The notes beneath the pieces were generated by a model. It saw nothing but the letters and a program-made list of their open reading frames with translations, searched no databases and was not told the origin of the DNA. From IMG/VR virus record IMGVR_UViG_3300035208_005676, positions 1 through 64,000 of that record: 64,000 bases of DNA, one strand, 5' to 3'. The DNA is from a virus. Taxonomy: Duplodnaviria; Caudoviricetes. Each line of letters starts with the position of its first letter. The first letter of the stretch is position 1. The position numbers were made by a program, and so were the translations under genes. Of this stretch, positions 26,253 through 54,192 are shown piece after piece.

Positions 26253-26989
26253 TGGCCTACGCGGGGAACACCCAAGCTCAGGGCCGGAAGATGCGGATCC
26301 GGAAGAAGCCCGGCCCACTCCTGCTGAAAGGGGCGGAGGGGTCGTCCATCGCGCGTGGAGTCAAGGCGAGGGAAGACAAGCGGGCGCGGGTGCGTGTGCC
26401 GGGGCCCATGCCCGCGGGTAGCTCGGTTCGGGACGTCGAGCCGCCGGGCTGCACCCCGGAGGAGTACGTCCGGGCGTACACGGCCTACAAGGCGCACCCG
26501 ACCATCCGGACGGTGGCCGAGGCGCTGGGTTGGTCGACGACGCGGGCCCGGCGGCTGGTCCTGGACGGCTACCCGGACTGGGGGATGGCCCCGCTGCTGG
26601 AGCGCTTCGCCGGCCTGGTTGAGGAGGTGACGGCCGAGGCTGATGAGAGCGATCGGGACGTCATGGCGGCGATTGCCCGGGAGGCCCGGGAGCTGCGGCT
26701 GGACGCGCTGCGGCTGCTCCGGGATGGGTTGTCGGCAGCGAAGGCCGCTGTCTTCACGGCCAATGGGGAGGTACGGCCCAAGGATCTGAAGGATCTGTAC
26801 GAGATTTACGACAAGCTGGTCCGGTTGACGTCCTTTGCGCAGGGCGGGCCCGACCAGCGCGGGGAGCTGTCCATTCCAGAGGGGAAGCTGGATACTTCGG
26901 CGATGCTGGCTAACCTGATGGCTGCGGGGATCCTGGACGAGGCTCCGCCGAGGTTGCTGGAGGCGGAATTGGCGGGCAATGAATCCTGA
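26252..26989 (+). CDS. putative terminase small subunit
   Basis: HTH (TIRTVAEALGWSTTRARR) plus helical C-terminus, directly upstream of terL. Confidence 0.55.
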   Translation: MAYAGNTQAQGRKMRIRKKPGPLLLKGAEGSSIARGVKAREDKRARVRVPGPMPAGSSVRDVEPPGCTPEEYVRAYTAYKAHPTIRTVAEALGWSTTRARRLVLDGYPDWGMAPLLERFAGLVEEVTAEADESDRDVMAAIAREARELRLDALRLLRDGLSAAKAAVFTANGEVRPKDLKDLYEIYDKLVRLTSFAQGGPDQRGELSIPEGKLDTSAMLANLMAAGILDEAPPRLLEAELAGNES

Positions 26990-29195
26990 GCAGGCCCGTG
27001 TGCAGGTGCAGCGGCTCCTCGATGGCTCCTGGCAGCACGGGGAGGACGGCTACTGGGATCGGATCTCGGCCCTGCTCGGCTACGTCAAAGCGCAGGGGGG
27101 GCTCGGGAGTCCGCGGGACACGCGGGCGCAGCTGGACTTGCGGCGGAAGCACGCCGAGATCGCGATGATTGGCTGGGCGCGGGCCGACGCCAATGACTTT
27201 GCCTCCTACGCCTATTCCTCGACGGCTACCGGCCTGCCACTGCAGCAGAGTCGGATGCACTTCCTGATGCAGCGGGCCTTCGACGTGCTGGGCAATGCGG
27301 ACGTGGGCGCGTACCGCGGGAGCGGGAAGACGTCGCAGATGATCGAGGTGCGTGGGGTCCACACGCTCGGCACCGATCCAAACCTCCAGCTCAAGCTGGT
27401 CTGTGAAGGTGGCGACACCGCGTCGGCCCGGGTGAGGGCAATTCGGAACCATATCGAGCGCAACGCGCGGATCCGGATGGTCTTTCCGAAGCTGCTGCCC
27501 ATGGTGGGGATGCCCTGGTCCGACGAGTCAATCACGGTGGCCCGGGAGACGATCTCCAAAGACCCCAGCTTCTTCGGCGCGGGCTTCAACTCGGCGGTCG
27601 TCGGCGGCCGGTGTCACATCCTCCTGGGCGACGACGTGACGCCTCCGGACGCAATGTCGTCTTCGTCCACTCGGGCGGCCGTGGAGCGGAGCTGGGAGAA
27701 CGTCTGGACCAAGATGCTGACCCCCGGCGGCCGGATCTGGTTCGCGTACACCCCCTGGCATGACCGGGACTTGACAGCGAAGATCCGGGCCAATGCGGCC
27801 TTCCGTCACCTGCTCTTTGCCGTGGGCGGGCCCCAGGGCTGCCAGCATTGCCCGGACAACAAGGGCGACCCGTGCGGGATCCCCTTCCACAACCCCTGGG
27901 CTCCGCAGCTGCACTCGGCTGAGGAGCTGTGCCGGATCTACTTGCGGGATGGCTCGCTGTCCTACTCCCGGTCGCACCAGCTGATCCCGTTGGTCGCGGA
28001 GACGTCGCTGTTTCCGCCGTCGTTGTTCACGTCGGCGGTGCGGCGCACGGATCTGATCATGGGCCGCCCCTGGCGGTGGTGGGCCAGCTACGGGATCCGG
28101 CGCGTGATCGGCGTGGACCTGGCCATGGGGGCCGGGGCCGGCGACGACTACACCGTGATCTGCGTGCTCGGCTTCGACGAGAATGGGAAGCGCTATCTCA
28201 TTGATCTGATCCGGGAGAAGACTACTGACTACCAGCGGCAGCTGCAGCTGGTCAAAGAAGCCTATTCCAAGTATCTCCCGGATATGATCTTTGCAGAAGG
28301 CACGCAATACCAGCGGGTATTCTCGTCGATTCTGGCGGCGACGACTGCTCTGCCGATCAAAGCGTTCTACCCGATGGGAGCGGGCAAGGGGCGGCGGGTG
28401 GAGGGGGCGGACAAGCGCGATCTGAAGTTTGGTGTGCCCGGCCTGCGCATTCTCTTCGAGCAGTCGAAGTTGATCCTGCCGATCGGAGACGACTACAGCT
28501 TGGAGCGGTCGGATATTCTGCAGGACGAGCTGCAGCATATCGCCATGACCGACGACGGGAAGGTGGAGGGGGTCGGGTCGCATGATGACTGCGTGATGGC
28601 CCTTTACATTGCCCACCAGGCCGCGCTGCGGCTCGGGGCGGACTTCGGGGAGGAGGTTGACCGGACCTTCGATGGCTCCCCGCTGCCAGGCAACCTGGAG
28701 GGGCTGGAAGACTCCCTGCCTGTCTCCAGCGTGCCGCTGCAGCACCCCGACCTGGGGAAGCTGATTCCCTTGGCTGCCGGGGCAGGCCAGGCGGTGCAGG
28801 TGCCGGTGAAGCGGATCCGGCCGCGCCCGGCCGAGTACGAGGAGATCTATCAGGTGCTCCGGGACCAGGAGCCGCGCCACCTGGACGCCTATGTGCGGTA
28901 TGTGGCCGCGCTCCACGAAACTCCCAAGCGGTACCAGCTGCTCGGCTCTGGCTTTCCTCCGGCGCTCGCGGGGAAGCTCGACGGCCTGCAGATCAAGTTC
29001 GGCGGAGCGTCGGTCCTGTTGGTCGCGGAGGATCTGTCGAAGCAGTTTGAGCGGGCGGTGCTGGTTGGCGACCGGCGGCAGCTCGACCATGTTGACGAGG
29101 CCCGTGTGGAGGAGTTGTTCGGGGAGGGCGACGAGGGGCTGGCAGCGCAATCGCTTCGACTGCCTGAAGGGGCAGAAGGCTGGGAGGTGCTCTGA
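26979..29195 (+). CDS. terL: terminase large subunit with C-terminal extension
   Basis: RGSGKTS, GGRCHILLGDD, TPWHDRDL, GVDLA..DDYT, HDDCVMA. Confidence 0.92.
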   Translation: MNPEQARVQVQRLLDGSWQHGEDGYWDRISALLGYVKAQGGLGSPRDTRAQLDLRRKHAEIAMIGWARADANDFASYAYSSTATGLPLQQSRMHFLMQRAFDVLGNADVGAYRGSGKTSQMIEVRGVHTLGTDPNLQLKLVCEGGDTASARVRAIRNHIERNARIRMVFPKLLPMVGMPWSDESITVARETISKDPSFFGAGFNSAVVGGRCHILLGDDVTPPDAMSSSSTRAAVERSWENVWTKMLTPGGRIWFAYTPWHDRDLTAKIRANAAFRHLLFAVGGPQGCQHCPDNKGDPCGIPFHNPWAPQLHSAEELCRIYLRDGSLSYSRSHQLIPLVAETSLFPPSLFTSAVRRTDLIMGRPWRWWASYGIRRVIGVDLAMGAGAGDDYTVICVLGFDENGKRYLIDLIREKTTDYQRQLQLVKEAYSKYLPDMIFAEGTQYQRVFSSILAATTALPIKAFYPMGAGKGRRVEGADKRDLKFGVPGLRILFEQSKLILPIGDDYSLERSDILQDELQHIAMTDDGKVEGVGSHDDCVMALYIAHQAALRLGADFGEEVDRTFDGSPLPGNLEGLEDSLPVSSVPLQHPDLGKLIPLAAGAGQAVQVPVKRIRPRPAEYEEIYQVLRDQEPRHLDAYVRYVAALHETPKRYQLLGSGFPPALAGKLDGLQIKFGGASVLLVAEDLSKQFERAVLVGDRRQLDHVDEARVEELFGEGDEGLAAQSLRLPEGAEGWEVL

Positions 29196-33235: not shown

Positions 33236-35305
33236 ATGTCTTCAATCGGCCTGAACAACGGCAACGCCCCGGCCTTCACGTCGCGCAGCCGCCTTTCTCC
33301 TGACGTCCACCCCGATATGCCCCCTGAGCCCTCCGCGGACGCTGTGGGGCAGGGGCGGCCGATTGCCAGCCTCGACGACGTGACGGACGGGCTCGGGCTG
33401 CCTTCCGACGATCGGGCGCGGCTGCGCACCGGCCTGGAGGAAGCTGGGCGAGGCCCCGACGCGATCCGCAAGGCGGTCGCTGGTCCGCTGCGCGAGCTGC
33501 GGCAGTCGAGCCGGGATCCTCTGCTCGTCAAGACCGTGGGGCAGCGGTTCACCGCGTATCTGGGCAATGGGCTGATCAAGGGCAACGACCAGCCCCCCGC
33601 CGGCTTTACCCCGATCCCCAACAGTCGTCACGGCGGTTGGCACAAACAGGCCGGCGCGGGTTTTTTATACTATTACCCCGGAGTCGGTGTCACCCGGCAG
33701 AGCAAGGAGAACATGCCCGCGCAGCCGGGCATGAAGCAGACAGGACCGCAGCAGGGGCCCGGGGGGCAGCAGGGGCAGCCCCCTGGGGGGAAAGGCCAGC
33801 CAGCGGGGCAGCAGGGGGCCCAGGCGGGGCAGGAGCAGGTGGATCCCTACAAGCCGACCTCGACGAAGCGACCGGTAGCCGAGCTGCTCGGCGGGATGGA
33901 TCCCAAGGAGTTCAGCGGGCTGTCGAGGACCGACCAGGCCGCGAAGACAGCCAAGTATTCCGACGTGGCTGCCGAGATGGAACAGTACCAGCCACCCGAG
34001 CCCTACGACGGTGACTCCCACGCGGGCGCGGCGAAGTCGGCCGCAAAGCATGTGCGGCAGTTGCAGCGGGACGGGGTGTTCTGCCAGGATGCGGCGGAGC
34101 GGACGAACGCGCTGGTCGCCCGGATGGCCCAGGACGCGCAGGCCGCGAAGATCCCCTCGCAGCTCTTCGCCGCGCTGACCGCGCGCAACGTCGCGAAGCT
34201 GGCCCTGCAGGAGGCCAAAGCCGTCGAGCGGACGATCGGGGACCATGGGGTGCGGCATTGCTCCGTCAACGTCAAGCATTGCCATGAGATCATGGACGCG
34301 TTGAAAGCCGGCGGGCTCGCGGTCGAGCCCAAAGACTACCTCGCCGCGTCACAGATCATGATCGATCACGATATGGGCTACGCGATTCCGGCCATCCACG
34401 AAGGCGGCTTCGACGTGGGCGACAAGTTTCACCCGCAGGCGTCGCGGGTGCTCTGGGAGCAGCAGCCGGAGATGGGGCACATCTTCGGGGAGGACGGCGC
34501 GAAGGCGATGGCCCAGATCATCGAGGAGCACAGCGGGACGTCCCTGGACTGGGAGAAGGACCCGCTCGGCTCCGCGGTGCGGATGGCCGACAATACCCAC
34601 CTCTTCGCCGACAAGATGCCGGAGCTGCTCTTCGACTCCCGCAAGGGGGTCGAGCTGATGGCCAAGATCGCGTTGCTGAAGCAGGCCGAGGGTTTCGTCG
34701 GGAAGGAAGGGCAGAAGGCCGCGGGAAAGGATGCTGGAATCGGAGCCGCGGTCAACGATCTGCGGGACGCGCTGCGCCAGCACATTGACCAGCGCGGCGA
34801 CTTGCCGATCCAGTATCGGCAGCGGCTCCAGAAGGCCGCGGCTGAGATCGGGGCCAACACGGACGTCTTCCTGGCCTCGCGGCTCGCTGGCCGAGATCCG
34901 AAGTTTGCCTTCGACGCGAAGGAGAAGCGGATGGACCTGACCTGCGAGCATTCCGACGTCCGCGGGGCCATCGCGGACGTCTTCGGAGAAGACGAGCAGG
35001 ACAAGCAGTTTTCCAAGATGCTGGAAGACTTCGGCCTGAAGAAAGCGGATCAGGACAAGCTGAAGAGCCCGCCGCCGCCAACCCGGGTGGATATTCCTCC
35101 GGATGGGAAGGGATCGGTCGCCAGCTTCACCTGGAAGCCGAACACAAAGGCGAATGCCCACGAAAAGGAGTTCGCGGACGTGCTGCATAGCGTCCAGGCG
35201 GAGTGGAAGGCCATTCAGGGGGAGCAGGACGAGACGAAGAAGGCCGGGATGCTCGCCAAGTGGACCGGGGAGTTGACCAAGGCGCTGCGCGCCTGGCAGC
35301 GGTAG
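33236..35305 (+). CDS. HD-domain phosphohydrolase with N-terminal leader and repeat module
   Basis: DHGVRH...DHDMGY...HP...EH...RMAD; LIKG followed by PPAGFTPIPNSRHGGW...YYYP. Confidence 0.7.
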   Translation: MSSIGLNNGNAPAFTSRSRLSPDVHPDMPPEPSADAVGQGRPIASLDDVTDGLGLPSDDRARLRTGLEEAGRGPDAIRKAVAGPLRELRQSSRDPLLVKTVGQRFTAYLGNGLIKGNDQPPAGFTPIPNSRHGGWHKQAGAGFLYYYPGVGVTRQSKENMPAQPGMKQTGPQQGPGGQQGQPPGGKGQPAGQQGAQAGQEQVDPYKPTSTKRPVAELLGGMDPKEFSGLSRTDQAAKTAKYSDVAAEMEQYQPPEPYDGDSHAGAAKSAAKHVRQLQRDGVFCQDAAERTNALVARMAQDAQAAKIPSQLFAALTARNVAKLALQEAKAVERTIGDHGVRHCSVNVKHCHEIMDALKAGGLAVEPKDYLAASQIMIDHDMGYAIPAIHEGGFDVGDKFHPQASRVLWEQQPEMGHIFGEDGAKAMAQIIEEHSGTSLDWEKDPLGSAVRMADNTHLFADKMPELLFDSRKGVELMAKIALLKQAEGFVGKEGQKAAGKDAGIGAAVNDLRDALRQHIDQRGDLPIQYRQRLQKAAAEIGANTDVFLASRLAGRDPKFAFDAKEKRMDLTCEHSDVRGAIADVFGEDEQDKQFSKMLEDFGLKKADQDKLKSPPPPTRVDIPPDGKGSVASFTWKPNTKANAHEKEFADVLHSVQAEWKAIQGEQDETKKAGMLAKWTGELTKALRAWQR

Positions 35306-35306
35306 C

Positions 35307-38300
35307 GTGCGTGAGTATCCCCCCGGCACCGTGCGGCAGTGGCGCACCGGTCCTGCTCGGAAGGAAGCGGATGGCTCCTGGGTACCGTTGCCAGCCGGGG
35401 GGAAGTACCCGCAGGGGAAGGGGCTGCGGATCCTGTCGCTCTTCTCCGGGGCTGGGGGGCTCGACGAGGGGCTGCGGCGGGCGCTGCCCGATGCGAAGCA
35501 CGTCGGTTTTGCAGAGCCCGACGAGGCTGCCCGCGCGGTCTTGAAAGATCATTGGCCCGGGGTGCCGGTCCACTGGGATGCCCGCGAGCTGGCCGATCGA
35601 GCCGAGACGGGGAAGGACATCGGGCGACCTAACCTCGTGGTCGCCGGTTTTCCCTGCCAGGACGTCTCCCAGGCCGGTAAGGGTACCGGGATGGCCGGGA
35701 GCCGGACCAGCCTCTACCGGCACGCGCTCCGGATCATCCGCGCCACGAAGCCCGAGATCGTACTCTTCGAGAACGTCCCCGGTCTGCGCACCAACGGGTT
35801 GGCCCTGGTCCTCGCGGATCTGCACGCGGCCGGGTACGATGCAACCTGGGATCACGTCCCGGCCGCGGCGGTCGGGGCCCCCTCGCAGCGGGACCGGATC
35901 TTCCTGGTCGCGCACCGGCCCGGGGTGGAGCTGCACTTCGGCGGCGCGGCTCCGGAGCGGCACGGGGTACACTGGCGGCAGACGTGGAAGGAAGCGCCGG
36001 TTCTGTCGGCTGACGAGGAGGCCGGGGCAGAGGCGCTGCGGCGGCAAGGCGGGCTTCCGGTGACCTGGAAGGGTACCGGCAGCAAGGAGATCCTGCGGCT
36101 CGCCGGGAACGCGGTAGCGCCCCCCGTAGGGCACTACCTGGGGGAGATCCTGGCGGGCGCGACCGAGGGCAAGGAGCAAGCGGCCGCGGCGAAGCCCTGG
36201 CCGGCGGAGCTGCCGCGGGCCGGTGTGCTCCGCGGCGGCGGTGTCGAGGAGCGGAAGCCCGCGCATCCGCTCGGAGCCCTGCGGAACACCGCGCAGGTGG
36301 GCGACGTGGTCTTGATTCAGGACCCGGCCCCCTACAACCCGCCTGGGGAGGACGCGTACGACGGCGCGAGCGCGGTCGACGAAGCCTACCTCGGGCAGGT
36401 GGTCACGATTCAAGGGCGCGGCTCCGAGGATCAAGTGGACGTCGAGACGCCGAACGGCGACGTCGTCCCCTTGCCCTGGACGTGGCTTGCGCGGCTGCCC
36501 ACGCCGACCGCGACCGAGGGGAAGGGTGGGATCCCGGCGAGCTTGCCGGGCTTCCCGGGACAGGAGTTTGCAGCGCGCAAGCGTGGCGGCCAGCTGCGGC
36601 ACATGGTCACCGGGAGCGTCAATCACGACTTCGCAGCGTGGGCGCAAGGGTTTCCGCAAGGGTGGTTTGACGCTGTCCAGGCAGAGCAGCCGCGGGAGAA
36701 GGAAGGGGAGCAGCTGCCGCTGATCAAGGCCGGCTACCCTGTCGGTAGCGTGCGTCTTTTTCGGGCAGCTCCGGACACGAATTGTGACGATTCGGGCACA
36801 ACTTCGTTCGCTGCTCGGGAAGGCGATGCTGTTGCATACCTGGACAACCCCGGTTTTGGCGGAAGCAAGCTCTACACGGTGGTTATTTCTCCTGTTTTGA
36901 GGGAGACTCTCGACCTGATTGAGGGGGAAGCCCCGAGTTGGCTTGCCGGGGCAATTCGATCTCATGGTGCCGCCGGGAAGGTGTGGGCGCTGACCGCTTC
37001 AGAGGTAGTACGGGCCGCTTTGGCGGAGCATGGTATTCGATGGGTCAGATTTACTGACGACTTTCCTGTTGGTTGCGAGACGTGGGCTCTTGTGGGATGG
37101 GAAGACGGGTCCACCAGTGACGTTGAAGACGAAATGGAGGAGATCAAAACAGGAGGAGAAGCTGTGTCTTCGGGGCAGCGTCATTCTTCCTGGCCTCCGA
37201 CCGGCCCCGGTTGGCAGGCGATCCCGAAGGGGAAGCACGGCGGGTTTCGGCGGCGGGCCGCGGACGGCGACTGGGAGTACACCTATCCTTCGGAGCCTAG
37301 CACACTGCAGAAGGGCAAAGCCTACCCGCCCGGGACGATCCGCCAGTGGCGGGGCGGCCCGGCCCAGAAGCAGGCGGACGGGAAGTGGAAGCGGTTGGAG
37401 CCCACCGCGAAGGTGACCGCGAAGGGCCATCCCAAGATCTTCCGGTATCCGACCGAGACGGTCTATGACGTCACGCCGGCCGGGCCGGGGTTGGTGCGGC
37501 TGACCCGGGAGGGTACGCAGTACGGCCCGACCATGCCCGAGGCCAGCGTCAAGCACTTTGTCAACGACATCGCGGGCCGGGTGGAGCTGCCCCCCTCGGG
37601 CAACCCCGACATCGACGCGGTGACCTCGGGGCAGGCGAAGCTGCTGGGCAAGGGTGACGACGGGATCGCCTTCCAGGTAGGGAACAAGGTCGTCAAGGTG
37701 TCGACGACGGTCCCGTACCACCCGGAGAATCCAGGGCACCGTTCTCCCCAGGAAGCGATCGAGATGTTGCGCAGGCAGAGCGAGACGGGGAACAAGCTCG
37801 CTGATCTGGGGGTGCCGGGGATCCAACGGAGCGAGTACATCGTTCACGGGGACAAGGGCTTCCAGATCAAGTCCTGGGTCGAGATCCCGGAGAAGCTGTC
37901 GCAGGACCAGCTCGACCAGCTGCAGGAGTCGATCCTGGCCATGCACCGGGCCGGCTATTCCTTGAACGACGAGCCCCAGGGCGGGCTTGGCCCGGACGGG
38001 CGGATGGTGCAATTCGACGTGGGCAAGGCCGCGCCGACGAAGGAGTCCAGTTCGCGCTGGGACAACAGCGAGGAAGACGACCTCAGCCGGCTGCGGTACC
38101 TCTACCAGCGCAACGACGTGCCGTTCGTCCGGTTGGATCGCACGGACGGCTTGCGGTTGGTCGACAAGGCCCAGGAGATGCTGGACCGGGACAAGCCGCC
38201 GCTGCGGATGATCGGGATGATCTTGCAGGACGCGGCCGAGAAGATCGTCAAGGAAGCTCCGCGCATGGGCTCACACTGGGCTGGCAAGGCGCAGGCGGAG

Positions 38301-40649
38301 CTGGAGAGCGCGCAGTCGCTCCTGGAGCTGGTCTCGATTGACGTCCCACCGCGTGACCCGCTGGCCAAGGGCAAGAAGGCGCAGATCGGGGAGGTCCACC
38401 AGTGGCAGGACGGCCCCGCGCGGAAGGTGGCCGAAGGGAAGTGGGAAGAATTGCCCGCAGAGGGCCCCAGGACGCCCCAGAAGCGAGCGGCTCCTGCCCA
38501 CCTGCCCGGAGAGGCCGAGCGGCGGTGGGCCCGGCTGGAGGCGATCCGGAAGGCCCTTCCAGCCATCCGGCAACAGGTGGATCTCAACCTGCGGGAGAAG
38601 GGGCTGTCGAAGCAGCGGATCTCCGCGGGCGTGGTCTTCCTGCTCGACCGGTACGGGATGCGCGTCGGCAAGGAGTCGCACGCGGCGGCGACCGGGCACT
38701 TCGGCGCGTGCAGCTTGCGGCGGAAGCACGCAACCCCCGAGGGCGACGGGATCCGGCTGTCCTTCCCGGGCAAGGCCGGGGTGGCCTGGAGCCTGCTGGT
38801 TGACGACCCGGCCGAGGTTGCATTGATCCGCCGGTGCCTGGCCCAGAAGGGGACGAAGGAAGACCCGCTGTTCCGGTTCAACGATGCCGGCGCGCTCCGG
38901 CAGATCTCTGACGACCAGATCAACGCCTACCTGAAACAGATCGGCGGGGAGACGGTGATCGCGCACTCACTGCGCACCTACCGGGCAAACCAGCTGCTCG
39001 TTGAGGAGCTGGACAAGGCCGGGAATCCACCGGCAGCGAAGCGGCCCGGGGTTGTGCGACGAGCAATCGCGGCGGTGGCCAAGCAGCTGTTTCACGGCCC
39101 GGCGGCCTGCCAGAAGAGCTACCTGCACCCGGCGATTCTGGCGGCCTTCCTGGGGGGTCAGCAAATGAGCCTGGACCTGGCCAAGGGGGCGGTGGGGCCG
39201 GACGGGTACACGCCCGAGGAGCGACGGTTCCACGCGGTGCTGGACGCGATTGCGGCTCACTGGCGGGGCAAGCTGGCCAAGGGTAAGAAGGTCCCGATCG
39301 GCACCATCCACACCTGGGCCGACGAGGCGCACGCGCCGGCTTGTAGCTTGGCCGCTGCGGCCGTGGCCGGCGTGCTCGGGTTGCCGGTGGTTGAAGAAGG
39401 CTCTGGTCCTGACGAGGTGCGAAACGCGTTTCGCTTCGCCCTGGAAAAGGGGCGGGGTTTCCCGATCGGCACCGTGCGCAACTGGCGCACCGGCCCGGCA
39501 AAGAAGGTGGCCGAGGACAAGTGGGCGCAGTTGTCTCTACCGGGTCCACAGCAGGCCAGGGAAGTGTCAGCAATGCCGGCTCCGGTCGTGGCGGGCGTGA
39601 CGTGGGAGAACCTGCCGGAGAAGCTGCAGGAGGGGCTGCGGCAGTTGTTTCCGGAGCATCCTCCGGAAGACGATCCGGAGGGCTGGGGGCAGCGTGTCCA
39701 GGCGGCCAAGGATGCGATCTGGGCGGTGCTGAAGCAGTACGAGCACGAGTCGGCCGGGGAGGTTGTGCAGCGGTGGTTTGGGCTCGCAGCAGCCGCGGAC
39801 ACCTTCGGGAACGGGCTGAAGCTCTGGCAGCCGGTGGCGATCAAGCTGCAGGAGTTGCGGGACGGGCGCGGAGGGGGGGTCTCTGTCACGGGCGCGCGGG
39901 GTGACGCGGTGATTCGTCTGTTGGGCGACGCGTTCCCCGAGTGGACGCGCACGCTGGCTCCGGTGCGGTTGCACTTGCAGCCGTTGGGCAAGACGGTAGC
40001 GGAGCGGGACTATTCGTGGGAGCAGCTGGTCAAGGGGTCAAGGATCCTGGAGGGTGTGCCGGAGAAGCAGAAGCAGCTGATCATGGAGTCGGAAGGGGTC
40101 TGCAAGCGGATGCCCGACAACGGCTCCACCATCGTCTACCAGTCCGCCAAGTGGCGGGCGCTGGAGGGGGTGACCGGGGCGAAGTACCGGCGCGTTTTGT
40201 TCCACGAATATGGGCACGCAATCGACAACGCGCTCGGGCAGGCTCCTGGGCATTTGTGGCCGGAGATGGTCGCTTTGGTGGGTAAGGATCAGTGGGCCGC
40301 CCGGGAGTTCATTTCTTCCTACGGTGCGGATAATGGATCCCACGAGGATTTTGCGGAGGCCGTGGCCTGGCAGCGATCGGGGCTGTTGTTTGCCGCTCCG
40401 ACAAAGGCGTCGACCATTGAGCGCTTTCTCTCCTCTCCCGAGGCCGCCCGCGATCTGATGTGGGGCGCGCTCCAGCGGCGTGCGGAGAAGGCGGCAGCCT
40501 CGCTGCAGCAGTTCATTCCGCCCAAGCCCGCGGCGGCAGCCAAGCCGACCATGCCGGCCTACCTGATCCATCCCGACCCCGCGGTGACCGCCGCTCGCCA
40601 GGCGGATTGGGAGAAGGTGGCCGCTTGGCAGCAGGAGGGTCTGCGGTGA
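35307..40649 (+). CDS. polyvalent protein: C5-cytosine MTase + ART-like + kinase-like + topoisomerase IB + zincin peptidase
   Basis: FSGAGG/GFPCQD/ENV/RDRIF/GNAV; LGKGDDGIAF..VVKV..FDVG; RVG..FPGKAG..LRTY..H..KSY; HEYGH..SSYG..EDFAE. Confidence 0.85.
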   Translation: MREYPPGTVRQWRTGPARKEADGSWVPLPAGGKYPQGKGLRILSLFSGAGGLDEGLRRALPDAKHVGFAEPDEAARAVLKDHWPGVPVHWDARELADRAETGKDIGRPNLVVAGFPCQDVSQAGKGTGMAGSRTSLYRHALRIIRATKPEIVLFENVPGLRTNGLALVLADLHAAGYDATWDHVPAAAVGAPSQRDRIFLVAHRPGVELHFGGAAPERHGVHWRQTWKEAPVLSADEEAGAEALRRQGGLPVTWKGTGSKEILRLAGNAVAPPVGHYLGEILAGATEGKEQAAAAKPWPAELPRAGVLRGGGVEERKPAHPLGALRNTAQVGDVVLIQDPAPYNPPGEDAYDGASAVDEAYLGQVVTIQGRGSEDQVDVETPNGDVVPLPWTWLARLPTPTATEGKGGIPASLPGFPGQEFAARKRGGQLRHMVTGSVNHDFAAWAQGFPQGWFDAVQAEQPREKEGEQLPLIKAGYPVGSVRLFRAAPDTNCDDSGTTSFAAREGDAVAYLDNPGFGGSKLYTVVISPVLRETLDLIEGEAPSWLAGAIRSHGAAGKVWALTASEVVRAALAEHGIRWVRFTDDFPVGCETWALVGWEDGSTSDVEDEMEEIKTGGEAVSSGQRHSSWPPTGPGWQAIPKGKHGGFRRRAADGDWEYTYPSEPSTLQKGKAYPPGTIRQWRGGPAQKQADGKWKRLEPTAKVTAKGHPKIFRYPTETVYDVTPAGPGLVRLTREGTQYGPTMPEASVKHFVNDIAGRVELPPSGNPDIDAVTSGQAKLLGKGDDGIAFQVGNKVVKVSTTVPYHPENPGHRSPQEAIEMLRRQSETGNKLADLGVPGIQRSEYIVHGDKGFQIKSWVEIPEKLSQDQLDQLQESILAMHRAGYSLNDEPQGGLGPDGRMVQFDVGKAAPTKESSSRWDNSEEDDLSRLRYLYQRNDVPFVRLDRTDGLRLVDKAQEMLDRDKPPLRMIGMILQDAAEKIVKEAPRMGSHWAGKAQAELESAQSLLELVSIDVPPRDPLAKGKKAQIGEVHQWQDGPARKVAEGKWEELPAEGPRTPQKRAAPAHLPGEAERRWARLEAIRKALPAIRQQVDLNLREKGLSKQRISAGVVFLLDRYGMRVGKESHAAATGHFGACSLRRKHATPEGDGIRLSFPGKAGVAWSLLVDDPAEVALIRRCLAQKGTKEDPLFRFNDAGALRQISDDQINAYLKQIGGETVIAHSLRTYRANQLLVEELDKAGNPPAAKRPGVVRRAIAAVAKQLFHGPAACQKSYLHPAILAAFLGGQQMSLDLAKGAVGPDGYTPEERRFHAVLDAIAAHWRGKLAKGKKVPIGTIHTWADEAHAPACSLAAAAVAGVLGLPVVEEGSGPDEVRNAFRFALEKGRGFPIGTVRNWRTGPAKKVAEDKWAQLSLPGPQQAREVSAMPAPVVAGVTWENLPEKLQEGLRQLFPEHPPEDDPEGWGQRVQAAKDAIWAVLKQYEHESAGEVVQRWFGLAAAADTFGNGLKLWQPVAIKLQELRDGRGGGVSVTGARGDAVIRLLGDAFPEWTRTLAPVRLHLQPLGKTVAERDYSWEQLVKGSRILEGVPEKQKQLIMESEGVCKRMPDNGSTIVYQSAKWRALEGVTGAKYRRVLFHEYGHAIDNALGQAPGHLWPEMVALVGKDQWAAREFISSYGADNGSHEDFAEAVAWQRSGLLFAAPTKASTIERFLSSPEAARDLMWGALQRRAEKAAASLQQFIPPKPAAAAKPTMPAYLIHPDPAVTAARQADWEKVAAWQQEGLR
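39419..39434. repeat. 16-bp palindrome copy 7
   Basis: exact match. Confidence 0.95.
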
Positions 40650-40873
40650 AGATCCTCTACAACGGTCGCGAGGTCGCCACCCTGGAGGACGGCCAGCTCA
40701 CCACGGACTATCCTCAGCTGCACACACTCTGGGCCAACCCGCCGCCTCTGCTCGGTGGAGGTGCGGTCAACGGAGTCAACTACTCGCAGCAGCAGCAGCC
40801 GAAGACGCCGGCCGAGAAAGAGCAGGCTTTCCTGGAGGCTCTGCGTCTGGTAGGATTCAGGGTTGAGGAGTAG
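40646..40873 (+). CDS. small hypothetical protein
   Basis: GGAGGG RBS, GTGA overlap. Confidence 0.65.
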   Translation: MKILYNGREVATLEDGQLTTDYPQLHTLWANPPPLLGGGAVNGVNYSQQQQPKTPAEKEQAFLEALRLVGFRVEE

Positions 40874-40877
40874 GAAG

Positions 40878-43460
40878 ATGGCCAGCTATCCGATCGGCAC
40901 AATCCGGCAGTGGCATGGTGGTCTTTGCCGGAAGGGAGCCGATGGAAAGTGGCACCCGATCAAGCCCGAGGACGTCACCCACGAAGATCTGGATGCGACC
41001 CCGCTGCGGGGCTCTGCCGAGGAGGCTCGCCGTAAGGAGCTGTCCCCGGAAGCCTGGGCGGAGAAGCTGGCCGGCGGCAAGCTCCACAAGGGCAAGAAGG
41101 CCAACATCGGCGAGATCCGCAACTGGGCGGACGGGCCGCACAAGAAGGTCGAGGCCGGGAAGTGGACCGAGGTCGAGGGCGGGCCGAAGGACAAGGAAGC
41201 GCGCAAGCTGCGGGAGCGGGAGCAGCTGGGGCAGACCAGCATGTTTGGGGACGATATGCCAGCGCGAGGGCTTGGTGCTCGCGACGGCGACGCGCCCGCT
41301 CCAGCCAAGAAGGAAGAGCCCGCGTCCGTTCCGGCGGCCCCGGAGCCCGAAGGGAAGCGCTGGGCCAAGGAGATCGAGCGGCAGGGTGTGGCTGAGCGGT
41401 CCGCGCCGGGGGGAACGGAAGCCGCGCAGCGCGACAAGCGGCTGCAACATCAGCTGCAGGCCGAGGTCCACGGGTGGAATCAGCCCTGGCAGCGGAATAT
41501 GACGCTGGCCAACGGGAACGTGACTTACGAGATCAAACGGCTGAAGGCAATGGCTCCATCCCTCCGCAAGGAGGGCACCGTCAAGATGATCGAATCGGCC
41601 ATCGCTGCGTATGAGGCCGACGAGACGATCGGACACTTCCACGCGGACAAGCTGCGCGGGGAGCTGTCGGCGGCCTGGGAGTCTGGCCGGAGGAAGGCGG
41701 CCCCGCCCGACGCGAAAGAGCAGAAGGCGATGGCCGAGTTCACCGCGCAAGCGGAGCGGGCCAAGCAGGGTGCGGTGGTCGACGGCTTCCAGGATCGGCT
41801 CCGGACCCTGTCCGCTGCGAAGCATGGGGGGCATGCCGAGCTGGTTGCGCTGCGCGACGAGCTGCGGGCCGCTGGTCGCGAGGGGACGATCCCTCACGCG
41901 GACGCCGATCGGATGATGGACGCGGCAACCGACCTGATCGTTGCGCGTCCGTCGTTGGTTCACGGCCTGGGCGGGGAGCACGAGATCCCCTCCTTTGCGG
42001 GGTCGCGTCGGGCGGACGGGTGGCGGCGAGAGTTTGGCAGCGGGGACGCGTGGTACCACGAATGGAATGACGTGCAGCAGGTTCCCGGACATGGCGGGGC
42101 CGAGGATCGGTTGGAGCGGCACACGATCCATGTCGACCCGGACGGGGGGGCATACCTCGTAGCGGTTCACCGGGCGTTTCAGCCGAGCAGCTCGGAAAGT
42201 CCGCTGGAGCTGCACGAGCACGGGCGCGCCCGCGTCGGGACACCGGAAGAGGTGTTGCCTGCGATCGAAAGGTTGCATTCCAAGCTGGGGGAGCAGAATC
42301 AGGAGCGACTGGCACAATCCAAGCCTTTGTGGGAGCAGTGGCGCAAGTTTCGGTATGACCATGCCGAGGGGGATCCGTACTTTCGCGACAAGGAGACGCA
42401 GTTTAGCGGGCGTGTCCTGAATAAGGACTATGCCGGGGCGCAGAAGCTCCTGGAGGAGTACCAGGCTGGGGTCAAGGGTGCCGCTCGACGGGGCAAGCAG
42501 CGGACCAAGCCGGTGCGGAAGAGCCAGATCCTCGTCAAGTCCAGCATCATCCAGGCTCACGTCGGCCCTCCCCTGGTCCTGATGGCCTCCCCGGAGAATC
42601 CCCAGGTGCGGCGGTGGCAGCGGCCCAACCCAGGCGAGTCGCGGGAAGCCTTCATGGGCCGCTTCCGCGCCAACCGCGACAAAACTCTTTCTCACTGGCG
42701 CTCCCTGGCCGCGCAGGTACCTGGCCAGCGCGACCTGGAGACGGGCGAGACGATCTCCGCAGCGCGCATCGAGGACGCGCGCAAGCGGGTGGCCGAGCTG
42801 GAGGGGGAGATCGCTAACGAGCGCAAGGGCGCGGCCAAGAAGGAAGCGAAGCGTGAGGCGGCCTCCGCCGGGCTCCAGGCGGGCCTCTTCGACGCTCCCG
42901 ACGCGGCACCCAAGCATCAAGGTGGCCTGTTCGGGGACGATGTTACGCCTGCGCGGGGGCTTGATACCCGCGACGGGGATGAGCCTGCGCCAGTCAAGCG
43001 AGGGCGGAACGTCGCTTATGACGCGTGGAACGATCAGGTGAAGCTGGCCGCGCAGCCGGCCCTGACCGCAATCATCAAGAAGCTGACCGCCGCGCACCCC
43101 GGCCTGTCCGCGACGGTAGAGCACGTCCCGGGCGGGGTCGACCCCGACGAGCTGCAGGCGAAGGTCAAGACCCCCTGGGGGACTGAGCTGACCGTGCGCT
43201 ACCGGCAGAAGATGGCGGGCATGGGCACCCTGGAGATCAAGCCGGCCGCCGACGACAACCGCGCCTTGCGCGCCGTGCGGGATGCGAACGTGCCGCTGTC
43301 GATCCCGATTGCCGCGGCAACACCCCGCTCCGCGATGGAGCAGCTGGTTGGGGCGGGAAAGCACCTGGCCGCCCTGGGAAGGTCCCTGGCGCTCCAGGCG
43401 CAGGGGTCGACCCCTTCCAAGGAGACGGCCTCCACAACGGGCAGCCTGGGCCTCTTCTGA
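40878..43460 (+). CDS. large hypothetical protein carrying cluster repeat modules
   Basis: Two PIGTIRQW-type modules, LHKG and LVKS junctions, internal FGDD..ARGL..RDGD.PAP duplication. Confidence 0.75.
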   Translation: MASYPIGTIRQWHGGLCRKGADGKWHPIKPEDVTHEDLDATPLRGSAEEARRKELSPEAWAEKLAGGKLHKGKKANIGEIRNWADGPHKKVEAGKWTEVEGGPKDKEARKLREREQLGQTSMFGDDMPARGLGARDGDAPAPAKKEEPASVPAAPEPEGKRWAKEIERQGVAERSAPGGTEAAQRDKRLQHQLQAEVHGWNQPWQRNMTLANGNVTYEIKRLKAMAPSLRKEGTVKMIESAIAAYEADETIGHFHADKLRGELSAAWESGRRKAAPPDAKEQKAMAEFTAQAERAKQGAVVDGFQDRLRTLSAAKHGGHAELVALRDELRAAGREGTIPHADADRMMDAATDLIVARPSLVHGLGGEHEIPSFAGSRRADGWRREFGSGDAWYHEWNDVQQVPGHGGAEDRLERHTIHVDPDGGAYLVAVHRAFQPSSSESPLELHEHGRARVGTPEEVLPAIERLHSKLGEQNQERLAQSKPLWEQWRKFRYDHAEGDPYFRDKETQFSGRVLNKDYAGAQKLLEEYQAGVKGAARRGKQRTKPVRKSQILVKSSIIQAHVGPPLVLMASPENPQVRRWQRPNPGESREAFMGRFRANRDKTLSHWRSLAAQVPGQRDLETGETISAARIEDARKRVAELEGEIANERKGAAKKEAKREAASAGLQAGLFDAPDAAPKHQGGLFGDDVTPARGLDTRDGDEPAPVKRGRNVAYDAWNDQVKLAAQPALTAIIKKLTAAHPGLSATVEHVPGGVDPDELQAKVKTPWGTELTVRYRQKMAGMGTLEIKPAADDNRALRAVRDANVPLSIPIAAATPRSAMEQLVGAGKHLAALGRSLALQAQGSTPSKETASTTGSLGLF

Positions 43461-51278: not shown

Positions 51279-51629
51279 TTGGCGACGACCGTACCCGGAT
51301 CTGCAGCCCCCGAGGGTGTCCTGCGCAACCTTGTCCAGGCGCTTCAGACGGATCCGGTGTCCTACCGTCACTGGGGCCCGTGGTGGTGGCGGCTGAAGCG
51401 GATCCTGAAAGCGGCTGGCTATACCCGGGAGGTCTTCCAGGGGCTCGGCGAGGAGTTTCCTGACCACGAGATGCTGCACCGCTGGGATGACCTCGACGAT
51501 CGGGCCTTCCTGCTCGCGGCGCTCCTTGACCAGTACCAGAACGCGATCGCCCGCTGGCATTCGCAGTGGCAGGCGGACCCCGACCCGGAGCGGCCGGAGT
51601 ATTTCCTGCTCGACCCGGACGTGGAGTAG
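51279..51629 (+). CDS. hypothetical protein
   Basis: GGGAGG RBS; YRHWGPWWWRLK. Confidence 0.7.
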   Translation: MATTVPGSAAPEGVLRNLVQALQTDPVSYRHWGPWWWRLKRILKAAGYTREVFQGLGEEFPDHEMLHRWDDLDDRAFLLAALLDQYQNAIARWHSQWQADPDPERPEYFLLDPDVE

Positions 51630-51633
51630 GATC

Positions 51634-54192
51634 ATGGGCGAGCGTATCCCCGGCGGGCTGGCAGCGGGCAAGAAGCCTGAGGACTTCGATCCGGAGCAGC
51701 TCGCGGCCGGCGTCAGGGTCGAGGCCGAGCACACCACGGACTCGGCAGTCGCTCGCGAGATCGCGATGGACCATCTGACCGAGGACCCGGACTACTACCG
51801 GAAGTTGCGGCGGATGGAAAAGGCGCTGCGGGACGTCGGGGCCTGGCTGACGCTCGTCGAGCTGGTCCCGGAGGCCGATCTGACGAAAGCGGATCGGCAG
51901 GCCGCGCAGCACAAGTACATCATGCGCCAGCCGAGCGGCAAACCGAAGCCGAAGTGGCGCTACTGGTACAAGATGCCGGGCGGCAAGGGGGTCGTCACCC
52001 ACGACCGGCTGGTCGAAGGGGCGCGCTTCGCCGGGGCGCACAACGGCGCGGCAGGCCACTGGGAGGTGCTTTCCTCCGGAGACGACGGGGTGCTCGCTCG
52101 CCACTCCAGCGGCGCGCACGTCAAGCTGTCCCACGAGGAGTTTGCGGCCGGCGTCAACGCGCAGCACGCGGGAGCGCAGGGCGAGGCCCGGACAGAGCGG
52201 CGGCGCGAGATCATGGAGTCGTTGAAGGTGCTCCACGAGGGTGGCGGCGGCAAGGGGCAGGCGAAACGCGTTTCGCACCTGATCGAGGAGGCTGTGCGGC
52301 TCGGCTGGGTCTCGGAAAAAGAGGCGCAGCTCTACCGCAACCGGCTGCAGCCGGCGGAAGACAAGGCCGCGGCAGCCGATCCGGGAGCGAAGCTGAAAGC
52401 CGCGCTGGCCAGCGCGGCCCCGGAGCACCGGGACGCGATCCTGGCGCACATGCGCAGCCTGGAAGAGGAGCGGCAGAAGCTCGAAACGGCGGGCGCGGAG
52501 AAGCCGGCCGCCGCTCCCGCTCCGGAGCCCAAGGGCGGAGAGAAGGACAGCGGCCTCGGGCTGCGCGGCAAGTCCGACGACATGAAAACCGCGGATGCGA
52601 CGGGCAAGGGGCAGGACCAGCCCTTCCGCTACCGCCTGGTGCCGCTGGCGGACATGATCCCCTCGCACAACCCGGAGGACCAATTCCGCGAGCACCCACA
52701 GTACCCGAAGGGGGTGCAGGAGCGGCACTATGACCAGAACAAGGAGTCACAGCTGACGATCCGGCAGCGGGCCGGCGAGCTGGAGCCGCGCTTCCTGGTC
52801 AATACCAACCCGGACGCAGCCAACGGCCCGCCAATCATCGTCCCGAACGGCGTTGTCCTGGGTGGCAACAGCCGCACCATGACGTTGCAGCTCGCCTACC
52901 ACGACCATCCGGAGCAGGCGCAGAAGTACCGCGACTACATCAAGGAGCACGCGGCAACCTTCGGCTTCTCGCCCAAAGACGTCGACGCGATCGAGGATCC
53001 GGTGCTGGTCCGCGAGGTCGACGACCCCGGGACGCAGAAGGAACGGGCGTTGCTGGGCCGGCGCTACAACGAATCGTTCACTCGGGCGCTGGCTCCGCAA
53101 GAGGAGCAGGTGACGCTGGGCAAGCAGATCTCCGCGGGCACGCTGGGCAAGTTGACCGACTACACGGACATGCTGGCCGAGGCCAAGGAAGAGCCGACCT
53201 TCGAGGCGTTCCTGAGGTCCAACCGGTCGCGGCGGTTCGTCGAGTCGCTGGTCAAGGACGGGGTGATCGACGAGCGCAACCGGGATCGCTACTTGCTCCC
53301 GGCCAAGTCGGCGCACGCGGGGCTGCTCAACGAAGTCGGGCGGGTGTTCGCTTCCCAGGTGCTCATGGGCAGCATCATCGACGACGTCGACGACCTCGAC
53401 GACATCGGGAAGACCTACCGGGACCGGATCAGCTCGCAGCTGCCGGTGATCCTGGCCGCGAGCGCGAGCAACCCGAAGTTCGACCTCTCCCGGGCGCTGA
53501 AAACCGCGGTCGGCGTGCTCGCGCAGCAGGAGCGGGAAGGCAAGGCGCACCCCTGGCTGGTCCTGAAGCAGGGTGACATCGCCCGGAAGGACAAGGAGAC
53601 GGGGGCCGAGGTGGTGACCGGCGCGGGGGACTACTCCCACCCGGTCTACAAGGATTCGCTGGCGCAAGCCATGGTGGCCGTCTTCTCCCGGGCCTCGCAG
53701 AAGGCCACGGGTCCGGGGTTCCGGAAGTTTGCCGATCTGGCGACCGCGCCCTCGTCGGAGGGCGGGATGTTCGCGGACGGGCCGACTGACGAGGAGCGGG
53801 CCCTGGCCGGCATGCGCAGCGCGTTTGGCTTCACGACGGCCGATCCGCTGCGCGAGGTCGAGAACCTCGAAAACGAGCGGCTGGGCGCGAACGCGCAGGC
53901 GACGGCTGAGCGGGGCAAGGCCGCTGTGAAGCAGAAGATGACCGAGCGCGGGATCAAGACGCAGGGCGAGGTTGCGCCCAAGAAGGTCCGCAAGCCGCGG
54001 CTGGTAAAGCCCGAGCCCGAGCCGATTCCTGAGCCCGTGCGCAAGCCGCGCAAGGCAAAGGCAGCCCCGGCTCCCGAGCCTGAGCCTGAGCCCAAGCCGA
54101 CGCCGATCCGGCGGGGGCGGGGCCCGGACAAGCAACCGCGCAGGCGGCGGGAGCCGAAGATCGTTGTCACGGGGCGGAGGAAGGCGGCATGA
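51634..54192 (+). CDS. polyvalent protein: DUF5661-like N-terminus + ddrB-like ParB domain
   Basis: QLAAGVRVEAEHT..AREIAMDHLTEDPDYYRKL; YRLV..DMIPSH..QERHY..GPPII..VLGGNSR. Confidence 0.75.
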   Translation: MGERIPGGLAAGKKPEDFDPEQLAAGVRVEAEHTTDSAVAREIAMDHLTEDPDYYRKLRRMEKALRDVGAWLTLVELVPEADLTKADRQAAQHKYIMRQPSGKPKPKWRYWYKMPGGKGVVTHDRLVEGARFAGAHNGAAGHWEVLSSGDDGVLARHSSGAHVKLSHEEFAAGVNAQHAGAQGEARTERRREIMESLKVLHEGGGGKGQAKRVSHLIEEAVRLGWVSEKEAQLYRNRLQPAEDKAAAADPGAKLKAALASAAPEHRDAILAHMRSLEEERQKLETAGAEKPAAAPAPEPKGGEKDSGLGLRGKSDDMKTADATGKGQDQPFRYRLVPLADMIPSHNPEDQFREHPQYPKGVQERHYDQNKESQLTIRQRAGELEPRFLVNTNPDAANGPPIIVPNGVVLGGNSRTMTLQLAYHDHPEQAQKYRDYIKEHAATFGFSPKDVDAIEDPVLVREVDDPGTQKERALLGRRYNESFTRALAPQEEQVTLGKQISAGTLGKLTDYTDMLAEAKEEPTFEAFLRSNRSRRFVESLVKDGVIDERNRDRYLLPAKSAHAGLLNEVGRVFASQVLMGSIIDDVDDLDDIGKTYRDRISSQLPVILAASASNPKFDLSRALKTAVGVLAQQEREGKAHPWLVLKQGDIARKDKETGAEVVTGAGDYSHPVYKDSLAQAMVAVFSRASQKATGPGFRKFADLATAPSSEGGMFADGPTDEERALAGMRSAFGFTTADPLREVENLENERLGANAQATAERGKAAVKQKMTERGIKTQGEVAPKKVRKPRLVKPEPEPIPEPVRKPRKAKAAPAPEPEPEPKPTPIRRGRGPDKQPRRRREPKIVVTGRRKAA
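52261..52276. repeat. 16-bp palindrome copy 8
   Basis: exact match. Confidence 0.95.

Follow-up and report, generated by a model that had tools for sequence, protein, structure and literature searches.

A probable polyvalent phage protein of 1780 residues carrying a type IB topoisomerase, a C5 cytosine methyltransferase and a recurring junction motif

Background

Phage-type polyvalent proteins, described by Iyer, Burroughs, Anand, de Souza and Aravind in 2017, have phage P1 DarB and DdrB and the N4 virion RNA polymerase protein as their prototypes (PMC5512222). These proteins join unrelated effector domains in one giant chain and represent a predicted, little-tested route by which phages deliver counter-defence enzymes together with their DNA. 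The zincin hub of polyvalent proteins has been proposed to process them, and HHpred has linked polyvalent zincins to lethal factor (PMC5512222). Lethal factor itself cleaves before an aliphatic residue located two to three residues past a basic stretch (PMC3153234). The present analysis concerns a 1780-aa open reading frame (ORF) of the caudoviricete record IMGVR_UViG_3300035208_005676 from IMG/VR. The window, i.e. the whole stretch of DNA analysed, comprises the first 64 kb of this 103.5-kb phage record, which CheckV rates as complete. An initial annotation, made from the letters alone, had read the gene as a five-enzyme fusion acting as an invasion-time kit, and such a multi-enzyme kit is the published polyvalent-protein concept (PMC5512222).

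The class is already known, with variable architecture as its hallmark. The new elements at this locus are a type IB topoisomerase (Topo IB) and a C5 methylase as cargo, a kinase family that is uncurated, a junction cassette paired with a lethal-factor-like C-terminus, and a natural cargo swap at one locus.

Results

Probable assignment to the polyvalent proteins

Based on its sequence, we estimate a probability of roughly 0.7 that the 1780-aa gene encodes a phage-type polyvalent protein in which several unrelated effector enzymes are combined in one chain. The predicted order of the modules is C5 methyltransferase, two unassigned modules, kinase fold, Topo IB and HExxH domain (Table 1). We favor this placement because of the terminase-portal context of the gene, its DarB-like and DdrB-ParB-like neighbors and the domains that accompany its kinase module in other proteins. 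The gene is one of five large ORFs situated between the terminase (26979-29195) and the portal (55418-57367), and its large neighbors encode an Eco57I-MTase+SNF2 (DarB-like) protein and a DUF5661+ddrB-ParB protein. Three unrelated catalytic domains (methylase, kinase fold and Topo IB) reside in the same chain, and modules of this protein are common to recognized polyvalent proteins; a syntenic protein in the related phage fragment G006 carries an ART-PolyVal domain above cutoff. The likeness to polyvalent proteins thus comprises the unrelated effector domains of a giant chain, the Dar-like neighbors, the combination of kinase fold with a candidate zincin, and a cargo that varies. In contrast to the founding survey, whose reference list is the one place where a text search met a topoisomerase or a cytosine methylase, both enzymes are predicted here as cargo. 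The junction motif of about 25 aa described below likewise did not turn up in a term search of that paper (PMC5512222). The count of five enzymes was not borne out. Of the modules proposed, three are firmly supported as enzymes and the zincin remains a plausible candidate; only four enzymes had been named, and the fifth candidate would be the module at aa 481-625.

The 1780-aa ORF is real, with GC3 of coding type (0.73-0.97) over its full length except for aa 481-660 (0.52-0.70). The public gene call P0002 (1753 aa) begins 27 aa later, at a TTG at 35388, and loses the first copy of the junction motif. We have taken the GTG at 35307 as the start, because the later start leaves out a motif that the next gene keeps at its own N-terminus; the GTG yields an M-x-x-Y-P-x-G-T beginning, as found at the N-termini of the ORF at 40863 and of its homologue in the metagenome contig L005. 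No full-length relative was detected in 50,697 phage records, where the methylase part alone gives matches, or in a pattern scan of IMG/VR. A search of a 5.8-billion-protein index returned the protein itself plus one protein with the common kinase module and nothing else.

Table 1 Features of the 1780-aa gene and of the next large gene (positions within the window; residues are those of the 1780-aa protein unless stated)
Feature	Position	Strand	Residues	Remarks
Whole gene	35307..40649	+	1-1780	Single 1780-aa ORF; GTG start one base past the stop of the upstream 689-aa ORF
Junction motif, copy 1	35316..35390	+	4-28	YPPGTVRQW..GP..K...G.W; N-terminal, as in the next gene
Predicted C5 cytosine DNA methyltransferase, short-TRD phage type	35418..36188	+	38-294	PF00145, phrog_363, M.HhaI
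Segment behind the methyltransferase	36189..36725	+	295-473	Includes PTPTA...GFPQGW (aa ~395-455), resembling TRD/motif IX of other phage methylases
Conserved module	36747..37181	+	481-625	Half junction motif before it (aa 474-486); atypical codon usage
Junction motif, copy 2, with basic lead-in	37308..37406	+	668-700	LQKGKAYPPGTIRQW...; G-D-W-E-Y-T-Y element before it (aa 654-660)
Predicted protein-kinase-fold module	37416..38306	+	~704-1000	Gly loop 781-786, K797, H880-x7-D888-x2-Q891, D904-x-G906
Junction motif, copy 3	38364..38462	+	1020-1052	LAKGKKAQIGEVHQW...
Predicted type IB topoisomerase catalytic domain	38526..39176	+	1074-1290	Pentad R1119, K1156, R1223, H1263, Y1272
Junction motif, half copy, decayed	39279..39326	+	1325-1340	LAKGKKVPIGTIHTW; shorter still in the relative P0154
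Junction motif, copy 4	39444..39542	+	1380-1412	LEKGRGFPIGTVRNW...
C-terminal domain with probable lethal-factor-like zincin core (aa ~1600-1700)	39564..40646	+	1420-1780	Candidate catalytic H1633, E1634, H1637, Y1672, E1680
Next large gene	40863..43460	+	865 aa	Two full junction motif copies (its aa 12, 83); same cluster; kept downstream in L005 and G006

Topoisomerase IB

Profile comparison assigns the region ahead of the C-terminal part to the type IB topoisomerases. PF01028 matches aa 1074-1271 with an E value of 8e-24 (84.7 bits, the curated cutoff being 23.7), and the R-K-R-H/N-Y set that characterizes these enzymes is present, so that the R-K-R-H-Y reading proposed initially for ~38500-39160 holds. 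Alignment with Deinococcus radiodurans TopIB (PDB 2f4q; E 2.8e-19) extends over ~230 residues of the catalytic domain with all five catalytic positions occupied, K174 of the Deinococcus enzyme falling on K1156 and Y289 on Y1272. The fourth position is His here and Asn in the Deinococcus chain; vaccinia topoisomerase also has His at this position. Poxvirus topoisomerase is carried in the virion and supports early transcription, and type IB topoisomerases require neither ATP nor Mg. In 2f4q, chain residue 72 is the first to be aligned (residue 51 when the whole protein was the query), and the stretch ahead of the catalytic domain amounts to ~45 residues, consisting mostly of junction motif. Detectable relatives were found in 2 of the 50,697 deposited phage genomes at 25-27% identity, and a pattern scan of IMG/VR and of the GTDB species genomes gave no close relative. 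Some jumbo phages possess stand-alone Topo IB genes as part of their DNA-topology set (PMC7824862). Unlike the bacterial, poxvirus and jumbo-phage enzymes, the predicted topoisomerase of this phage lies inside a 1780-aa protein and has the junction motif where the N-terminal domain would be.

C5 methyltransferase and the segment behind it

The N-terminal enzyme is assigned to the C5 DNA methyltransferases on the basis of profile matches and ordered motifs. Matches were obtained with PF00145 (aa 41-208, E 1.2e-34), with phrog_363 (aa 38-291, E 2.6e-56, covering profile positions 52-321 of 327) and with M.HhaI (E 5e-11), and the motifs occur in the normal order of I (FSGAGG), IV (GFPCQ, with Cys117), VI (ENV), VIII (QRDR) and X (GNAV). 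The methylase domain annotated initially at ~35420-36680 is thus retained with a smaller extent, as it ends near nt 36188 according to phrog_363. The closest described enzymes are the short phage methylases of PHROG 363 (Mycobacterium phage Che9d gp80 and relatives), which share 33-37% identity across the ~255-aa enzyme and the usual motif order. The present methylase differs from them in being part of a polyvalent protein and in having a second stretch similar to the target recognition domain (TRD) and motif IX ~130 aa further downstream, without a second motif X.

This second stretch, PTPTA...GFPQGW, indeed follows GNAV as had been noticed in the initial annotation. Its interpretation as a displaced TRD was rejected, since by the phrog_363 profile the enzyme is complete without the downstream segment and the methylase similarity of that segment is weak (phrog_1008 methyltransferase, E 0.034; C-terminal part of an Acinetobacter phage methylase, E 0.006 by tblastn). 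It may represent a remnant or, alternatively, an additional recognition element. The entire segment from aa 295 to 473 has no Pfam match, and no homologue of it was found in the related loci.

Kinase-fold module

With aa 295-1030 as the query, an exhaustive HMMER search of 1.84 billion representatives returned 437 clusters at E<=1e-3, including 179 at E<=1e-30, and the best 150 of the 437 all match aa ~704-960. The proteins that contain it range from 161 to 5251 aa, and the module may occupy any position along the chain. An alignment of 39 sequences (38 short members and the query) has invariant G781, G783, G786, K797, D888, Q891, D904 and G906, with H880 near-invariant. The AlphaFold (AF2) model built from this alignment reached a predicted local distance difference test score (pLDDT) of 91 and a predicted template modeling score (pTM) of 0.85. 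When this model was searched with Foldseek, every match was a kinase (E ~2e-6), and VIA-align placed 170-196 residues on Rio2, IRAK4 and CK1 with Z of 11-12. In the predicted model the hallmarks of a kinase-like fold are present, i.e. two lobes, a Gly loop, the beta-3 Lys and the catalytic and metal-binding Asp residues, and the residue set for ATP binding and phosphotransfer is complete. The kinase-like domain suggested initially at ~37640-38130 (Gly loop, VVKV, FDVG) was substantiated by the model quality, the Foldseek matches, the Z values and the invariant residues. Phage T7 protein kinase provides a functional precedent for such a module.

Several features echo the published description of Kinase-PolyVal, namely the H880-x7-D888 insert, a Gln in the final strand of the N-lobe and, ahead of the Gly loop, a Glu that is consensus in the family. 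In contrast, the Kinase-PolyVal HMM (PF18762) gave no match in this genome (at E<=1) or in the 39 members, none of which is matched by any Pfam model. A family profile run against PDB sequences returned nothing significant, and the kinase fold comes solely from structure prediction. Compared with kinases such as Rio2, IRAK4 and CK1, the module has Gln in place of the catalytic-loop Asn at +3, and its helical region past DxG partly aligns with their C-lobes, so that the C-lobe is not wholly lost. Across proteins the module is accompanied by DarA_C, GGDEF, GNAT, InPase, ddrB-ParB, PAPS reductase and LPD1 domains, and it is present in 35 IMG/VR phage contigs. Five complete phages that carry it have no other module of the 1780-aa protein, save aa 481-625 in one of them. 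The family is large (at least 437 clusters at 50% identity) and has no Pfam model, which is a new point.

C-terminal HExxH domain

The HEYGH sequence at aa 1633-1637 is the sole HExxH among the five large ORFs, and both this motif and E1680 (within H-E-D-F-A-E) are invariant in three homologues. A three-sequence profile compared with PDB produced anthrax lethal factor in 6 of 7 matches (E 0.055-0.44), with the His, Glu, His, Tyr and Glu positions aligned. The likeness to lethal factor (ATLF; PDB 1j7n/4dv8) consists of the HExxH, a Tyr ~35 residues further on and a Glu in an E-x-F-A-E helix. H1633, E1634, H1637, Y1672 and E1680 correspond to lethal factor H686, E687, H690, Y728 and E735, the active-site residues of that enzyme. 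The syntenic G006 homologue, whose C-terminus has HELGH, shows a weak ATLF match (E 0.011), and its C-terminus matches the domain by BLASTP (E 3e-6) over a region spanning the HExxH and the E-D-x-A-E helix. An Atlas search also gave a lead to ATLF. The domain has no match to Pfam (ATLF included), PHROG or MPTase-PolyVal PF18818, and a two-sequence C-terminal profile found nothing in PDB. Searches among longer and near-length proteins recovered the protein itself and one 68% relative only, and a pattern scan of metagenomes was empty. In contrast to an overall relationship with lethal factor, the similarity is limited to ~60 residues; the conserved His that ends strand 2 of the common phage-type zincin is not evident here. 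On balance the C-terminal domain is probably a lethal-factor-like zincin. The HEYGH of the zincin annotated initially at ~40190-40370 is present, and its identity as a zincin is of moderate strength given the AF2 pLDDT of 43 and the lethal factor E values.

An H-E-L-E-H within a repeated block of other proteins and contigs (P0014, P0015, P0021, P0022, P0068, L009, L021 and L022) also fits the HExxH expression. This block (G-G-K/R-G-D...H-E-L-E-H..D...I-A-x-D-H-L-x-E-D..Y-Y-x-K-L) looks by eye like DUF5661 and is not to be taken for a zincin; Pfam itself matches DUF5661 only in the window ORF at 51487-54192. The block often directly precedes a junction element and the kinase module.

Junction motif

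A motif of ~25 aa, G-T-V/I-R/H-x-W..GP..K...G-K-W, lies ahead of each module. Six full copies (aa 7, 676, 1028 and 1388, and aa 12 and 83 of the next gene) and half copies at aa 480 and 1332 were located, all at module borders. The internal copies have an L-x-K-G-K-K lead-in, and the two N-terminal copies directly follow the initiator Met. The motif was also found in other polyvalent proteins with E values down to 8e-6, against one weak match in shuffled controls. At the DNA level the copies share 44-64% identity, with exact runs of 12 nt at most; this low identity indicates selection on the peptide, and a recombination repeat acting at the DNA level was rejected on the same figures. The internal KGKK-x-x-I-G junctions bear a resemblance in sequence to the lethal factor cleavage pattern.

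A second element, K-G-K-H-G-G-F-R-R-R-A-A-D-G-D-W-E-Y-T-Y, is situated just ahead of copy 2 (37224-37292, aa 640-662). Similar G-x-W-x-Y-x-Y stretches, as well as a G-P-F/Y-I-G-P-R-G-G-K-W-A-D element, occur between the domains of other polyvalent proteins (P0021, P0022, P0029, P0068, L022 and L039).

Related loci and cargo exchange

The closest relative, P0154/L005, derives from an independent metagenome contig of 2.2 kb and is 68% identical to the C-terminal domain. Its frame enters from the Topo IB end and continues into the C-terminal domain, and both the small ORF and the next gene recur behind it. This arrangement excludes an assembly chimera for the half of the gene from the Topo IB end to the C-terminus, and the artefact that the initial annotation had allowed for is ruled out as far as is feasible. 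A portal search located three related phage fragments at 62% identity, the largest being G006. Its gene order is kept (ORF A, a 1171-aa gene, small ORF, C, D, E and portal), and its 1171-aa gene (L055:5423-8938, -) presents the motif, ART-PolyVal (E 1.5e-14), the motif, GNAT (E 1e-10), the motif, an unassigned stretch and the HELGH C-terminus. In G006 the C5 methylase homologue occupies a 540-aa frame of its own, which lies upstream of the terminase. Judged from these sequences, the locus behaves as a variable cargo slot in which the flanking genes, junction motif and C-terminal candidate zincin are kept and the enzymes are swapped.

Module at aa 481-625 and neighboring ORFs

Homologues of aa 481-625 with 46-48% identity occur in other large ORFs of the portal-related phages and in the unrelated phage contigs L029 and L033. 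The GC3 of this module is 0.53 here as opposed to 0.87-0.90 in the relatives, and because of this difference we suggest that the copy in the present frame may have been acquired recently from a lower-GC source. The stretch with GC3 of 0.52-0.70 corresponds to 36747-37286 (aa 481-660). An ESM Atlas lead to ART-PolyVal (PF18760) for this module was dropped, the HMM being negative and hhalign against the G006 ART-PolyVal module giving a probability of 1.4%. Even at loose thresholds, neither Pfam nor PHROG gave a usable match for the unassigned segments.

The ORFs flanking the gene, at 33236-35305 (+; 689 aa) and 40863-43460 (+; 865 aa), lack significant matches to Pfam and PHROG and are kept in G006, the first at 56% identity and the second at 33-46% over parts. 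A small unassigned ORF of ~72 aa (40646-40864, +) lies between the 1780-aa gene and the next, and has counterparts at this place in L005 (75 aa) and in G006.

Discussion

As a polyvalent protein, the product would be made late together with its DarB-like and DdrB-ParB-like neighbors, packed in the head, and would exit the particle along with the DNA. After delivery, the methylase could shield the incoming DNA from restriction, the topoisomerase could relax or reshape the entering genome, comparable to the virion-packaged poxvirus enzyme, and the kinase module might modify a small molecule or proteins of the host. Cleavage at the junctions by the putative lethal-factor-like zincin of the C-terminus would free the modules in the head or in the host. 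This processing role is favored for the candidate zincin because it holds the sole HExxH of the cluster and is the constant part of a locus with variable cargo; for the same reason self-processing of the polyprotein appears likelier than the cleavage of host defence proteins proposed in the initial annotation. Taken further, the locus could be a plug-and-play slot, in which a constant protease cuts a junction cassette made up of a basic K-G-K-K, two to three residues and I/P-G-T-V-R-x-W...G-K-W, and the freed enzymes would all begin with the ~25-aa tag that neighboring genes have at their natural N-termini. The tag would serve head packaging or exit, such that any tagged enzyme would be deliverable. 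We propose this extension tentatively and regard it as rather unlikely.

Several observations weigh against the assignment and the mechanism attached to it. The Pfam models ART-PolyVal, Kinase-PolyVal and MPTase-PolyVal have no match in this genome. The phage is known from metagenomes alone, and timing, packaging, injection and cleavage are matters that we infer. In two genes the motif is found at the extreme N-terminus, a position at which a cleavage site by itself would serve little purpose. The canonical N-terminal DNA-binding domain of Topo IB was not detected in the 2f4q alignment. With regard to the C-terminal domain, its AF2 model (pLDDT 43) was unusable and was left out of the fold searches, none of the lethal factor matches is significant by itself (E 0.011-0.44), and the similarity of the flanking sequence to other polyvalent HExxH regions is marginal, as 103 out of 2000 decoys with the motif preserved did equally well (p ~0.05). 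The Asp three residues past the HExxH is replaced by Asn in the closest relative.

The protein could be polyvalent with an HExxH domain that does no processing, serving as a host-directed protease or as a non-catalytic encapsidation domain, and the motif could be a folding, docking or capsid-targeting tag. Precedents exist in the N4 virion RNA polymerase, which enters the virion uncleaved and has a zincin region of this kind on which its encapsidation depends, and in ArdC and TraC1, which are transferred at full length (PMC5512222). The presence of the motif at the true N-termini of two genes agrees with a tag, as does the AF2 prediction of its second half as a hairpin beside the N-terminal sheet of the kinase module (pLDDT 79-92). 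Against this stand the constancy of the cluster's sole HExxH at the C-terminus while the cargo varies, and the basic lead-in with its aliphatic residue, which is confined to the internal copies and agrees with the sites cleaved by the nearest relative of solved structure. We consider a non-processing HExxH domain possible, if somewhat unlikely. An unpackaged cytoplasmic enzyme of DNA metabolism, methylating and relaxing the replicating phage DNA under regulation by the kinase and HExxH domains, would place methylase and topoisomerase among ordinary replication-linked functions. It would agree with the stand-alone Topo IB in the DNA-topology set of some jumbo phages (PMC7824862) and with the G006 methylase homologue outside the cargo protein, in its own frame upstream of the terminase, and packaging is deduced from context. 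Yet the replication genes of this phage (helicases, primase, polymerase and recombinase) form a separate block at 12-24 kb while the present gene lies in the terminase-portal block with Dar-like genes, the kinase module occurs alongside domains that are hallmarks of injected polyvalent proteins, and an exchange of cargo between related phages is untypical of core replication enzymes. We regard a cytoplasmic enzyme of this kind as quite improbable.

An artefactual origin of the long frame, either as a chimeric assembly or as a chance GC-rich open frame, would draw on the 67% GC of the genome, at which long chance frames are common, on the metagenome assembly underlying the record and on the one module with deviant codon usage. 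It is opposed by the coding-type GC3, by four independent profile or structure matches in one frame, by the separately assembled L005, which at 68% identity runs on past the Topo IB end, across the C-terminal domain and into the same downstream genes, and by the in-frame occurrence of the junction motif in the next gene and in relatives. We regard such an artefact as extremely improbable.

Conclusions

As a probable polyvalent protein, the 1780-aa product would add two cargo enzymes beyond the main text of the founding survey, i.e. a C5 methylase and a Topo IB, the latter being a great rarity among phages. The junction motif together with the candidate lethal-factor-like protease constitutes a testable processing rule. 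If true, this rule would explain how giant proteins become working enzymes and would give a handle to predict, and to load experimentally, the proteins that phages deliver. Should the plug-and-play slot exist, a virion-borne Topo IB would be a bacterial-virus parallel to the poxviruses.

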